Shown in pieces: positions 24,743 through 45,806 of a stretch of 64,000 nucleotides of DNA. The stretch comes from Curvularia clavata (lineage: Eukaryota). Every line of letters begins with the position of its first letter. Position 1 is the stretch's first letter. The DNA is taken from the NCBI GenBank assembly GCA_023920165.1, contig CP089277.1:124001-188000 (forward strand), read 5' to 3'. A model generated the notes under the pieces. It was given only the letters and a program-made list of their open reading frames with translations, did not search any database and was not told the DNA's origin. Position numbers and translations under genes: made by a program.

Positions 24743-27490
24743 ATGCCTTTTTCATTCCCTCGTTGTGGTATCCATGCTTTTCACGAAGTTTTGGGCATAG
24801 ACACGGACAAAATTCGCTTATACTGGGTGTTGCATTCTAATGATGAGACCTCAGTGCAAGCCGCATATCGGATCGAATTGTCCGATTCCCGGACTTTTGA
24901 TTCGCTGCTTTGGGACTCTGGCAGAATCACTGGCGACCAGCAACGAGACATTCTTTGTGCGCCCGAAGATGGCTTCCTTTCGACAACATTCCATTATTGG
25001 CGCGTAACCGTCTGGGACCAAAATGATATCGAGTCACAGAGTCCCGTCAACGAATTTTTCACTGCTTATCCACGCTCAAGCGGTCTGTTACCGCCCTATA
25101 GCATGAACCAGACATATATGCCACATACTAGCTTGATCTTTCGCACGTGGTTGGAAGACGAGCGAAACAGGTGGAAAGGTATCTGGATTGGAGACAATGG
25201 CGACAAACCCATATACCTACGAAAGTCTTTCCATCTGAAGCAAAAGCCTGCGAGAGCCGTTGTATTTGCGTCAGGGCTAGGACACTTTAACTTCATCTGC
25301 AACGGTGATCCGGCCGCGTCGAATGGACACGTCCTTGCGCCAGGATGGACGAACTACCATAGGACAGTACAATTTGTGGCATATGATGTGTCCGACATCC
25401 TAAAACAGGGTGAGAATGTGCTAGGCGCTCACGTCGGCAACGGTTTCTATGCCGGAGACCAGGGGGACGATCGATTCTTCTGGCCATGTTACGAGGACAA
25501 TACATACGTTAGATATGGCAACGAGCTGTGCTTCTTCGCTGAACTGCATCTGCTCTATGAAGATGGTTCGCGCGATACGATTACAACCGGCTCGGATTGG
25601 AAAGTGCGCAAAAGCGCGACAACATTAGCAAACATATATTCGTCGGAAACAAAAGATTTCAGAGATTTCCCTGTGGGATGGGATACAACTGGGTACCACG
25701 AAGATGATCAGTGGAACAGTGCGACACCAGTCACGGGGCCGCGTGGAAAGCTCAAATACCAGAGTCAGCCACCTGTGATTTTACATGAGACGTTCCAGCC
25801 GATATCATCAGTTGCGTTAGAGCCGGGGGTTGTAAGCTTCGATTTCGGCCAAAATATGGCAACCATGATCAAGATAGAGGTTTCTGGTCCGAAGGGTGCG
25901 GAAGTTGTAGTCCGCTTCTCCGAGACGGTTGGCGACAATGGCCGAGTTTTGATGCCAGACCCGCTTTTCAAACAATTTGAGACTGGGGTATTCTGCAAGT
26001 TCACACTGGCTGGAACAGAATTAGAGACATGGGAGCCTGATTTCTGTTTCACAAGTGCACGATACATTCAAGTTGAGGGTGTTGCTCTCGAAGACGGACA
26101 AGGGCTTCCCGTGGTACGATCTATCGCCAGCAGACACGTCTCCTCGGCCGCTAGACGATTAGGAAAACTCGAAACCGACAAGGAAGATGTCAATGCTATG
26201 ATCAAAATGTGCTATTGGTCGTTCGTCAGTAACCTCTTCAGCTACCACACCGACTGTCCGCAGATTGAGAAGTTCGGCTGGCTCGAAGTAACACATCTTC
26301 TTGCGCCTGCGACCCAATACATTCGAGATATGGAGTCTCTATACTCGAAAATACTGGAAGACATTGTGGACGCGCAGGAGCCGAACGGACTCTGTCCTAC
26401 AATGGCGCCTGAGATCAGGTACATGTGCGGTCCGCTCCACGACACGATTACCTGGGGTGGTGCGGTCGCTATACTGCCTGAAATCCTTCACTTCTACTAC
26501 GATTCAACTCATGTTTTTGAGAAGCTATTCGAGCCATGTGTCCGCTACATGGAGTACATCAGAACGAAGGAAAGGGAGGGTGGACTGATCGAGCATGGCC
26601 TTGGGGATTGGGGGCGTGACATTGCATTTGGTAATAACCAAGCCAACATTGAGACAGCTGTATACTACCGTTGTCTACGCAATATTGAGCGAATGGCGAA
26701 TGAGATGGGGAAATCTGAGGAAGAATGTTGTTTTCGCAATTGGGCTGATCGCATAGCTAAAGTGTACAATGATAAACTTCTTGTCACAGACAAGAAGTTA
26801 TATCCATACGCATTCTACACTTCCCGCGATGATTTAGCCAGTAAAGATCGAAATATGGTAGCGCAAGCTATTGCGCTCCAATTCGATCTCGTTCCTGGAA
26901 ATTTAATCGTTGACGTACAGCGCGCCTTCCTAGACACCTGCGCAGAGGCCAACAACAAGATTCAAGCCGGGGAAATTGGTCTCAAGTTCATTTGGAATAC
27001 TCTCGCCGATCTCGATCGTCCGGACATTGTACTCGAAATGGCACGTCAAGAAGAACACCCATCGTACATGCGCTTCATTCGCCGCGGCGAGACTACCCTC
27101 AACGAGTTCTGGCAAGACGCTTGTCGAAGCAAGTGTCACGACATGCTTGGTACAATCTATGAGTGGTTCTATCAAGCAGTGTTGGGGCTGAAGCCTGAAA
27201 CCAAAGCATACCGAACTTGGAGTGTGAAGCCGCCAATCATGTCAGAATTCAGGCATGTGGTCGGAAGGATGGAGTGTCCATATGGCTTGATTGAGATTGA
27301 GTATACAAAGACAGCAGACGAAAACGTTACAATGAATATCACTGTACCCACAAGTACGATTGGGTATGTGCTGTTGCCGAGACAAGAGAGCGCAGCAGTA
27401 GAGATCAGGAAAGAGAGCAGAATAACAAAAGCACAGGGACAAAGAGTTCAATTGAAACCAGGAAAATACGAGTTACAGATCAAGTTTTGA
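24743..27490 (+). CDS. Alpha-L-rhamnosidase (GH78), no signal peptide
   Basis: 915 aa, intronless. LLWDSG, YWRVTVWD, SGLG, LAPGWTNY, DFGQN, TDCPQIEKFGWL, GLGDW, GETTLNEFW, SKCHDMLG. Confidence 0.93.
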   Translation: MPFSFPRCGIHAFHEVLGIDTDKIRLYWVLHSNDETSVQAAYRIELSDSRTFDSLLWDSGRITGDQQRDILCAPEDGFLSTTFHYWRVTVWDQNDIESQSPVNEFFTAYPRSSGLLPPYSMNQTYMPHTSLIFRTWLEDERNRWKGIWIGDNGDKPIYLRKSFHLKQKPARAVVFASGLGHFNFICNGDPAASNGHVLAPGWTNYHRTVQFVAYDVSDILKQGENVLGAHVGNGFYAGDQGDDRFFWPCYEDNTYVRYGNELCFFAELHLLYEDGSRDTITTGSDWKVRKSATTLANIYSSETKDFRDFPVGWDTTGYHEDDQWNSATPVTGPRGKLKYQSQPPVILHETFQPISSVALEPGVVSFDFGQNMATMIKIEVSGPKGAEVVVRFSETVGDNGRVLMPDPLFKQFETGVFCKFTLAGTELETWEPDFCFTSARYIQVEGVALEDGQGLPVVRSIASRHVSSAARRLGKLETDKEDVNAMIKMCYWSFVSNLFSYHTDCPQIEKFGWLEVTHLLAPATQYIRDMESLYSKILEDIVDAQEPNGLCPTMAPEIRYMCGPLHDTITWGGAVAILPEILHFYYDSTHVFEKLFEPCVRYMEYIRTKEREGGLIEHGLGDWGRDIAFGNNQANIETAVYYRCLRNIERMANEMGKSEEECCFRNWADRIAKVYNDKLLVTDKKLYPYAFYTSRDDLASKDRNMVAQAIALQFDLVPGNLIVDVQRAFLDTCAEANNKIQAGEIGLKFIWNTLADLDRPDIVLEMARQEEHPSYMRFIRRGETTLNEFWQDACRSKCHDMLGTIYEWFYQAVLGLKPETKAYRTWSVKPPIMSEFRHVVGRMECPYGLIEIEYTKTADENVTMNITVPTSTIGYVLLPRQESAAVEIRKESRITKAQGQRVQLKPGKYELQIKF

Positions 27491-45806: not shown

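Follow-up and report, generated by a model that had tools for sequence, protein, structure and literature searches.

Introduction

Flavonols are plentiful both as defence compounds of plants and in plant litter, and the chemical route by which fungi degrade them has been known since the 1960s. In the literature searched, a gene has been assigned to the quercetinase step only of this route. The present analysis concerns a ten-gene locus at positions 24743 to 45806 of a 64,000-nucleotide stretch of DNA from Curvularia clavata (contig CP089277.1; hereafter the window), which an earlier note had described from the sequence as a self-regulated, intracellular cluster for the catabolism of rutin-type flavonol glycosides. 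In the classical rutin pathway of Aspergillus flavus, a rutinosidase acts on the glycoside, the C-ring of the aglycone is opened by a dioxygenase with release of CO, and the resulting depside is hydrolyzed to protocatechuate and 2,4,6-trihydroxybenzoate, the latter being the A-ring product of quercetin cleavage. This system is extracellular, as are the Cu-quercetinases of A. japonicus (1JUH), P. olsonii and S. sclerotiorum (SsQDO).

A quercetinase of a different kind, VdQase (VDAG_02532), has been described from Verticillium dahliae (El Hadrami et al., 2015; PMC4462102, cited here in part). No signal peptide is predicted for it, and the activity was assayed in extracts of mycelium. Rutin and quercetin induce it; in knock-outs, flavonols stay undegraded and virulence on potato is lost. 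A 2021 review lists VdQase as cytoplasmic and counts quercetinases among the detoxification enzymes. Fungi are thus already known to have an intracellular quercetinase, and cytoplasmic cleavage is less new than the earlier note had implied.

The fungal 1,2,3,5-tetrahydroxybenzene (THB) central pathway was defined by Martins et al. (2023; Microb Biotechnol 17:e14371; PMC10832562), cited here from parts of its main text and from its Tables S5 and S6. Its substrates are gallate and the isomer 2,4,6-trihydroxybenzoate, and a transporter of the major facilitator superfamily (MFS) and a transcription factor (TF) often accompany the cluster genes. In A. nidulans, the roles of a DUF3500 protein, a short protein and an FAH protein were shown genetically, the respective mutants being unable to grow on 2,4,6-trihydroxybenzoate. 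A mutant in the gallate 1-monooxygenase (AN4576) is still able to grow on this acid, so that a second monooxygenase must act on it. Under the heading 'Gallate and related gene clusters', Table S5 gives the A. terreus genes ATEG_08219a to 08222, among them a Zn2Cys6 TF [ATEG_08219b_new; 8.7 transcripts per million (TPM) on gallate, log2 fold change (log2FC) 1.4], the monooxygenase ATEG_08220 (TPM 6.7, log2FC 4.0), an MFS protein (ATEG_08221_new) and a DUF3500 protein (ATEG_08221-22_new; TPM 1706, log2FC 10.7). A 'quercetin 2,3-dioxygenase like' (QDO-like) gene stands without comment beside ATEG_08220 and the DUF3500 gene. Table S6 includes Bipolaris clusters. In the main text, the pathway is framed around gallate, and quercetin, rutin, cupin and flavon- never occur.

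In this study, the ten genes, their promoters and their occurrence elsewhere were analyzed. We read the locus, with a probability of roughly 0.6, as a cytosolic catabolic supercluster in which a flavonol-glycoside 'funnel' is joined to the published THB central pathway.

Results

Gene content and gene models

The locus begins at the ATG of a GH78 gene (24743) and ends at the stop codon of a GH3 gene (45806), with all ten genes inside this span. The window has the character of fungal DNA, its open reading frames (ORFs) being interrupted by short GT..AG introns; the GC content is 0.44–0.52 throughout, and the composition is unbroken at the cluster. Pfam was run on stop-to-stop ORF pieces of the window, and intron-aware spliced models were made for all ten genes. 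These bear out the gene inventory of the earlier note, in both position and family: an alpha-L-rhamnosidase (GH78), a quercetinase-like bicupin, an alpha/beta-hydrolase esterase, an MFS transporter, a class A flavin monooxygenase (FMO), a mini-protein, a Zn2Cys6 TF, an FAH-like hydrolase, a DUF3500 protein and a beta-glucosidase (GH3).

Contigs of four public runs in two studies, with 99% identity or more to the window, served as transcript evidence. Predicted introns are skipped at canonical splice sites in the bicupin (4/4 runs), in the esterase (first intron, 3/4) and in the GH3 gene (2/4). The three introns of the FMO and the two of the mini-protein are spliced out in all four runs, and the five introns of the TF in two to four of them. 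Because introns are skipped at canonical boundaries, these contigs represent spliced RNA, and six gene models are confirmed by them. The splice junctions of the bicupin and the mini-protein are independently reproduced by the B. oryzae proteins P0004 and P0266, and the FAH and MFS models are predictions from sequence. Contig cover is scant or nil over GH78 (26000–27300) and the MFS gene (32660–34650) and was not interpreted; contig depth, which is unable to show co-expression, was not used to rank genes.

The quercetinase-like bicupin and the divergent esterase

The bicupin gene (29476..30581, minus strand; 351 aa) comprises two exons (30581–30279 and 30228–29476) and carries a Cupin_2 domain (6e-7). 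When both exons were compared with solved structures, every significant match (E < 0.05) was to a quercetinase, namely YxaG/QdoI (2e-14) and QueD (1e-5) for the N-terminal cupin, and the A. japonicus enzyme 1GQG (6.7e-7 and 0.037). For a fold comparison, a model was derived from 20 family members [mean predicted local distance difference test (pLDDT) 69; good in the C-terminal and poor in the N-terminal cupin]. Foldseek places quercetinases at ranks 1–21 (1.6e-15 to 3e-10); the family ranked next is oxalate decarboxylase, at 1.6e-7, about 1000-fold weaker. Residues H64, H66, D71 and H105 are invariant in 20/20 family members, and the segment HWHQEAHD...PPKIIH presumably aligns with the metal ligands of YxaG, with three His retained and Asp in place of Glu; the ligand numbering is the one that we assume for YxaG, and the model is too weak for geometry.

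The family is widespread in Pezizomycotina (329 matches at E <= 1e-5, with 59–85% identity among the matches listed), and the nearest relatives come from plant-associated genera. Over the large exon, a homolog from V. albo-atrum shows 72% identity, and its N-terminus reads MSVSVH, the same residues that are encoded by the start-codon primer of VdQase (El Hadrami et al., 2015; PMC4462102). The bicupin is assigned by these matches to the family of VdQase, the non-secreted Verticillium quercetinase, and its family membership and the genetics of VdQase suggest that it would cleave flavonols with release of CO.

The esterase gene (30954..32032, plus strand; 323 aa, three exons; BD-FAE/Abhydrolase_3, 9e-12) is transcribed divergently from the bicupin gene. 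All seven sequences compared retain its HGG motif and its Ser, Asp and His. In 15 of the 21 metagenomic loci with sufficient 5' flank (see below), an esterase likewise lies head-to-head with the bicupin. Owing to this conserved pairing, the enzyme is a candidate for the depside esterase (2-protocatechuoylphloroglucinol carboxylate hydrolase). The depside esterase has been known as an enzyme since the 1960s, and the literature search found no paper naming a gene for it in fungi.

The tetrahydroxybenzene genes

The FMO, mini-protein, FAH and DUF3500 genes, together with the MFS and TF genes, are, by their sequence features, the published fungal THB pathway cluster. This identity had been overlooked in the earlier note, which had nevertheless named 2,4,6-trihydroxybenzoate, the acid that this cluster consumes.

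The spliced model of the FMO (34943..36536, minus strand; 478 aa, four exons; FAD_binding_3, 8e-16) has the features of a class A flavoprotein, including a GDACHP...AIEDG region, as befits a THB core gene. Its best match in A. terreus (64% identity over the first exon) falls into one 90% cluster with ATEG_08220, which represents one of three monooxygenase types, adjoins a DUF3500 gene and is not of the gallate/PhyA type (PMC10832562). The closest solved structures are 8gsm (3.8e-67) and 8x38 ('decarboxylative vanillate 1-hydroxylase'; 2e-53), both decarboxylative 1-hydroxylases of hydroxybenzoates, and 3-hydroxybenzoate 6-hydroxylase and NicC rank behind them. In view of these decarboxylative relatives and of the gap left by the A. 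nidulans mutants, the FMO is proposed as the missing decarboxylating 2,4,6-trihydroxybenzoate 1-monooxygenase.

The mini-protein (36967..37421, plus strand; 115 aa, three exons) has no Pfam match. Its motif FSASMW (Ser62 and Ser64) is invariant in 18/18 homologs of 114–123 aa, none of which has a Pfam domain. The short protein of the THB pathway has a conserved serine at a.a. 64 (PMC10832562), and the mini-protein fits it in the lack of a domain and the Ser near 64, the match being one of description, not of accession. Its predicted fold (pLDDT 83) is a four-stranded alternating beta/alpha sandwich of the CheY/flavodoxin type, in which FSASMW is located after the third strand. A fold search gave generic CheY/flavodoxin-like matches only (E ~1e-4, TM score 0.5–0.66), with no close relative among solved enzymes.

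The FAH-like hydrolase (40138..41231, minus strand; 293 aa, five exons) has a FAA_hydrolase domain (PF01557) detected in two exons (6e-23 and 1e-15), and is 30–43% identical to the FAH proteins adjoining bacterial DUF3500 genes. Within this minus-strand gene, and overlapping one of its exons, there is a GT..AG intron of the plus strand (40864–40928) that has a good branch site. In addition, long plus-strand contigs (about 37727–42810) connect the TF with the DUF3500 gene across an unspliced FAH region. This suggests a read-through or antisense transcript over FAH.

The DUF3500 gene (41545..42816, plus strand; 423 aa, single exon) matches PF12006 over nearly the whole profile (4.1e-118; positions 2–297 of 297), and its product is the putative THB ring-cleavage enzyme, a role taken from Martins et al. 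(2023). PDB entry 9x86, 'Amc20' (297 aa), aligns with residues 94–399 (5e-19) and looks like the first solved DUF3500 relative; the literature search found no paper on it. Several His pairs (GHH, DHH and HIH) are invariant in the four fungal DUF3500 proteins aligned, which suggests metal binding.

A promoter motif common to the cluster

Forty-eight arrangements of CGG half-sites were scored against the seven cluster promoters (2,978 bp in total). The palindrome CGG-N5-CCG is present in 7/7, most sites following CGGAAWWTCCGG; an overlapping CGG-N6-CGG arrangement, likewise found in 7/7, arises from sites ending in CCGG. The sites lie in the promoter of GH78 (site at 24574..24584, 169 bases before the ATG), the divergent bicupin/esterase promoter (30582..30953; sites at 30809 and 30833), the MFS promoter (site at 32337..32347), the divergent FMO/mini-protein promoter (36537..36966; sites at 36685, 36696 and 36731), the promoter of the TF itself (site at 37734..37744), the divergent FAH/DUF3500 promoter (site at 41403..41413) and the GH3 promoter (two sites, at 43160 and 43179, together spanning 43160..43189).

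The window contains 19 sites, compared with 8.6 +/- 2.7 expected from shuffles, and 11 of the 19 fall inside the seven promoters, each of which has at least one. Their density is 3.69/kb in the promoters and 0.11/kb in non-ORF DNA outside the cluster, and when regions of equal size were drawn at random outside the cluster 20,000 times, no set had the motif in more than four of its seven regions. No ungapped 7- to 9-mers common to the seven promoters were found. In the metagenomic loci, the bicupin–esterase promoter carries the motif in 12 of 17 other non-duplicate cases, at 1.67/kb versus 0.33/kb elsewhere in those loci. It also occurs upstream of homologs of the FMO (loci L041 and L036), the TF (L036 and L037), the DUF3500 protein (L037) and the MFS protein (L018), and two sites precede a bicupin-adjacent GH3 homolog in L006.

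The presumed regulator is the TF (37790..40134, plus strand; 696 aa, six exons), in which Zn_clus was found (2e-7); Fungal_trans is undetected on its split exons in the window, but reaches 4.8e-23 in the L041 homolog. The distribution of CGG-N5-CCG, as a candidate operator, supports one regulon under this Zn2Cys6 factor with autoregulation included. The term 'self-regulated' thereby gains substance, since the promoter of the TF is among the seven.

Glycosidases, transporter and cell compartment

The GH78 protein (24743..27490, plus strand; 915 aa, single exon) has the complete domain set of its family, consisting of N-terminal Ig, Bac_rhamnosid_N, concanavalin-like, six-hairpin catalytic and C-terminal domains, all five above the Pfam cut-offs (best 1.4e-89); the closest solved relatives are 6i60 (1.6e-73), 3w5m and 6gsz. 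The GH3 protein (43265..45806, plus strand; 830 aa, two exons) shows GH3 N, GH3 C and Fn3-like domains and a PA14 insert, the last at 23.6 bits, just below the 24-bit cut-off. It is closest to 7pjj (2.5e-81), and the PA14-bearing BglI of K. marxianus (3abz) matches exon residues 1–620 (5.9e-72). That the two glycosidases belong to the pathway is argued chiefly from the promoter motif, next to their position and one GH3–bicupin neighbourhood elsewhere. The MFS protein (32580..34284, plus strand; 518 aa, four exons; Sugar_tr, 9e-34) has GLUT, HXT and XylE as its nearest solved relatives and is thus a generic sugar porter; that it takes up the intact glycoside we only infer.

A crude N-terminal hydrophobicity test gave no signal-peptide-like stretch in any of the ten cluster proteins (0/10), whereas the positive control, a small protein of secreted type encoded nearby, scored 2.23. 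In this test, the absence of signal peptides asserted by the earlier note is upheld, and the cluster proteins differ from the extracellular enzymes of the A. flavus-type rutin system.

Occurrence in other fungi and in bacteria

Metagenome contigs were scanned with the bicupin alignment, giving 80 loci, 55 of which have a bicupin at least 40% identical to that of the window. All of the ten cluster proteins, and as controls eight proteins encoded in the flanks of the window, were used as tblastn queries against these loci (E <= 1e-8). Core counts refer to the 39 loci with a bicupin at least 50% identical, of which 21 have at least 1.5 kb of 5' flank and 18 at least 5 kb of total flank; the gene content of L036 and L041 was viewed to 10 kb only.

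Within the 18 loci, TF homologs are found in nine (30–41% identity over 525–691 aa), MFS homologs in two, and FMO and DUF3500 homologs in three each. The MFS homologs adjoin the bicupin–esterase pair in L009, L016 and L018. The FMO and DUF3500 genes are attached to the bicupin in L036, L037 and L041, where Pfam confirms DUF3500 (1e-118 to 1e-124), FAD_binding_3 and Fungal_trans. These three loci share no megablast-level DNA similarity and hence come from different organisms. Across all 80 loci, the eight control proteins gave one strong and four weak matches (24–25% identity). Since five families recur near the bicupin and the controls almost never do, the grouping goes beyond chance. Co-clustering in other genomes, which the earlier note had proposed as a check, is found in independent metagenomic contigs for homologs of five cluster genes.

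In named assemblies, linkage was read from NCBI locus tags. The bicupin and FMO genes are adjacent in a Pleosporales sp. (_006136 and _006137) and two tags apart in a Pestalotiopsis sp. (_006743 and _006745). The bicupin is linked to the mini-protein in Paraphaeosphaeria sporulosa (_002101 and _002105), and the FMO to the mini-protein in Paraconiothyrium brasiliense (_006685 and _006686). In B. oryzae, the bicupin, FMO and mini-protein are each on a scaffold of 25,367 bp, the equal size being an indirect proxy for a shared scaffold.

Two further groups of bicupins were observed. A clade with 41–47% identity (L019–L028, L033 and L047) mostly lacks an adjacent esterase, even with flanks of up to 10 kb on each side, and probably represents a paralogous subfamily whose partner or substrate is a different one. 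Three loci (L053, L054 and L056) combine a distant bicupin (30–34% identity) with an FAH homolog (34–38%).

Bacterial DUF3500 homologs were found in 78 loci, mostly of Actinomycetota, with 38–49% identity over nearly the full length. Within 10 kb, an FAH gene (30–43%) is present in 53/78 and a class A FMO-like gene (22–29%) in 54/78, and bicupin, esterase and short-protein genes are each present in 0/78. The occurrence of bacterial FAH and FMO genes without flavonol genes indicates that the THB core is old and self-standing, and that its union with the flavonol module is fungal.

Discussion

Proposed pathway

On this reading, the sugar-porter-type MFS protein would import the substrate, be it glycoside, aglycone or acid. 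GH78 would take off the terminal rhamnose and, as judged from its family, the PA14-bearing GH3 enzyme the glucose. The VdQase-type bicupin would then open the flavonol C-ring with O2, giving CO and the depside 2-protocatechuoylphloroglucinol carboxylate, as its family and the VdQase genetics suggest, and the divergent alpha/beta-hydrolase, given its conserved pairing with the bicupin, would split the depside into protocatechuate and 2,4,6-trihydroxybenzoate. The order of deglycosylation, quercetinase and esterase put forward in the earlier note is upheld as chemical logic. The ATEG_08220-type FMO may hydroxylate and decarboxylate 2,4,6-trihydroxybenzoate to THB, as its relatives and the A. nidulans gap suggest. 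The DUF3500 protein would open the THB ring to 5-hydroxydienelactone, the 115-aa protein would convert the lactone and the FAH-like hydrolase would cleave the product; these three roles were shown in A. nidulans (Martins et al., 2023; PMC10832562) and are transferred to the present genes by homology. Protocatechuate would pass to pathways encoded elsewhere. The Zn2Cys6 factor would drive the seven promoters, its own included, through CGG-N5-CCG (about CGGAAWWTCCGG). The more specific proposal, that the locus is a single intracellular regulon leading from glycoside uptake to small acids and supplying the depside esterase gene, the 2,4,6-trihydroxybenzoate monooxygenase and the regulator with its operator, is tentative, and we give it slightly less than even odds.

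Weighing of the alternatives

The same enzymes could serve another purpose, chiefly the detoxification of host flavonols by a plant-associated fungus and less their use as food, with the MFS protein carrying an aglycone or hydroxybenzoate, or acting in export, and the glycosidases serving other substrates. The loss of virulence on potato in VdQase knock-outs (PMC4462102, cited in part) and the classing of quercetinases as detoxification enzymes in the 2021 review speak for this, as does the origin of the closest bicupin relatives from plant-associated genera. Furthermore, no glycosidase was seen in L009, L016 and L018, where MFS homologs accompany the bicupin–esterase pair, and GH78 is absent from all of the other loci examined. 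However, a complete path to small acids through the FMO, DUF3500, short and FAH proteins exceeds the needs of detoxification, and the promoters of GH78 and GH3 have the cluster motif, as does the region before the GH3 gene that adjoins the bicupin in L006. Detoxification and catabolism can also coexist. We consider detoxification as the main purpose unlikely, though it is the most serious of the alternatives.

It is rather improbable that the locus is a plain THB cluster of the gallate/tannin type, in which the bicupin acts on another hydroxylated aromatic, the esterase is tannase-like and GH78 and GH3 are unrelated neighbours. The A. terreus locus is indeed filed under gallate, with the QDO-like, TF and FMO genes slightly up on this substrate (log2FC 1.4 to 4.0), but these genes reach a TPM of only 7–15 on gallate compared with 1706 for DUF3500 (PMC10832562, Table S5), and so weak a response suggests a different inducer. 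The carboxylate ligand of the bicupin is Asp, not Glu, and its identity to solved quercetinases is about 17–20%, which would suit another substrate; against this stand the genetic and activity evidence on quercetin for VdQase of the same family and the top structural matches, which are all quercetinases. In addition, the bicupin–esterase–TF core is free of THB genes in 15/18 loci and therefore has its own function. That independent genes or modules came together by chance, without common regulation, would accord with the fluidity of fungal microsynteny, with an arrangement of ten genes that was seen whole nowhere else, and with contig depths that cannot reveal co-expression. The recurrence of five families near the bicupin in independent contigs, where the eight controls hit almost nothing, and a motif that is present in 7/7 promoters versus at most 4/7 in the random sets and conserved in other fungi make chance very improbable indeed.

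Several observations weigh against the supercluster reading itself. Beside the bicupin, none of the 18 loci having 5 kb or more of flank contains a GH78, FAH or mini-protein gene, and a GH3 gene occurs in a single case (L006), so that the full ten-gene layout is lineage-specific; the 'ten-gene cluster' of the earlier note is complete here, but the core elsewhere consists of the bicupin, the esterase, the TF and sometimes the MFS gene. The bacterial DUF3500 loci, having neither bicupin nor esterase, show that flavonols and THB are not linked everywhere. At the predicted metal site of the bicupin, Asp stands in the place of the Glu of solved quercetinases, its N-terminal cupin is poorly predicted (pLDDT < 50 at residues 21–65), and the large exon of the esterase matches solved structures weakly (best 2.4e-4). 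The motif was picked post hoc among the 48 patterns tested on these same promoters, which is why its test in the independent metagenomic loci matters, and there it is absent from 5/17 other bicupin–esterase promoters. The absence of signal peptides is based on a crude hydrophobicity test, the transcript contigs show spliced RNA only, and the pathway roles of all of the proteins are deduced from sequence comparison and gene neighbourhood.

If the proposed pathway is correct, the 'gallate-related' cluster type of ATEG_08220 would be recast as a flavonol A-ring pathway, and the 'quercetin dioxygenase like' gene within a cluster published as gallate-related would be explained. The locus and its relatives supply testable candidates for the depside esterase, for the enzyme that feeds the A-ring into the THB pathway and for a regulator with its binding site. 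For plant pathology, the pathway suggests that VdQase-type detoxification may belong to a larger regulon.

Neighbouring genes

A small minus-strand gene between GH78 and the bicupin gene (27640–28287) encodes a cysteine-rich protein of 111 aa with a clear signal-peptide-like N-terminus; its 46-base intron (27921–27966) is skipped in 4/4 runs. As no CGG-N5-CCG lies near it, this gene is probably outside the regulon. Genes of the Na_Ca_ex family flank the cluster at 17894–19454 and 46097–47380, and a P450 gene (20711–22197, minus strand) lies between the first of these and GH78. The two exchanger genes were considered as a mark of duplication or insertion, and this was rejected since they are mutually unrelated (BLASTP E 0.083).

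Further upstream, positions 6071–16124 hold genes for a sugar transporter, a short-chain dehydrogenase/reductase, an alpha/beta hydrolase, a Zn-dependent alcohol dehydrogenase and an RPE65-family oxygenase (2e-141), with CGG-N5-CCG at 8028 and 10516, near two of them. The RPE65 family includes stilbene-cleaving dioxygenases, and this group may be a second set of possible plant-phenolic genes, an 'SDO-class' cluster.

Comparison with known systems

The THB cluster and the cytoplasmic quercetinase are already published, and most parts of the locus are known separately. The earlier note thus keeps its inventory, its absence of signal peptides and its chemical logic, whereas it missed the THB cluster and implied more novelty for the parts than they have. 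It had also allowed that such clustering might have been noticed before. Since Table S5 of Martins et al. (2023) lists the QDO-like gene, the monooxygenase and the DUF3500 gene together, their co-location is on record, but the literature search found no described quercetinase-anchored cluster and no flavonol–THB link, the terms tetrahydroxybenzene, quercetin and fungi never occurring together in it. The main text of a preprint by Gluck-Thaler et al. contains no mention of quercetin, cupin or DUF3500; its 27 supplementary anchor families lay outside the search and may include quercetinase.

The bacterial quercetinases YxaG/QdoI (B. subtilis) and QueD (Streptomyces) are the best N-terminal-cupin and fold matches of the bicupin. 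YxaG binds metal in both cupins, whereas the window bicupin appears to keep the His ligands in the N-terminal cupin only; to A. japonicus 1GQG its identity is about 20%. VdQase belongs to the same bicupin family and, like the window bicupin, has no signal peptide. It was published as a single gene, with no cluster, esterase, regulator or downstream pathway described in the parts of the paper cited (PMC4462102). VDAG_02534, two genes from VdQase, resembles sugar permeases as far as described, which fits the order of bicupin, esterase and MFS gene seen here.

The classical A. flavus pathway would share its chemistry with the locus throughout, from deglycosylation and C-ring dioxygenolysis with CO release to the two acids. 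It differs in using a rutinosidase where a GH78 and GH3 pair is found here, and, like the Cu-quercetinases, in being extracellular, whereas the cluster proteins lack signal-peptide-like N-termini. With the A. terreus THB cluster, as given in the parts of Martins et al. (2023) cited, the locus has in common the FMO (in one 90% cluster with ATEG_08220), the DUF3500 and FAH proteins, the short Ser protein, the MFS protein and the TF. The QDO-like gene of A. terreus is, by its description, a putative counterpart of the window bicupin. In A. terreus the FAH gene (ATEG_04856; AN12484 in A. nidulans) and the short-protein gene (ATEG_04855; AN0331) are at a separate locus, whereas all four THB genes stand together here; the A. 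terreus listing contains no esterase, GH78 or GH3, whereas here the THB genes and the flavonol funnel lie within 21 kb and share a promoter motif. To these systems the present analysis adds the reading from flavonol through 2,4,6-trihydroxybenzoate to THB, the esterase and FMO candidates, the promoter motif, and a lineage whose glycosidase genes lie together with the complete set of four THB genes in 21 kb.

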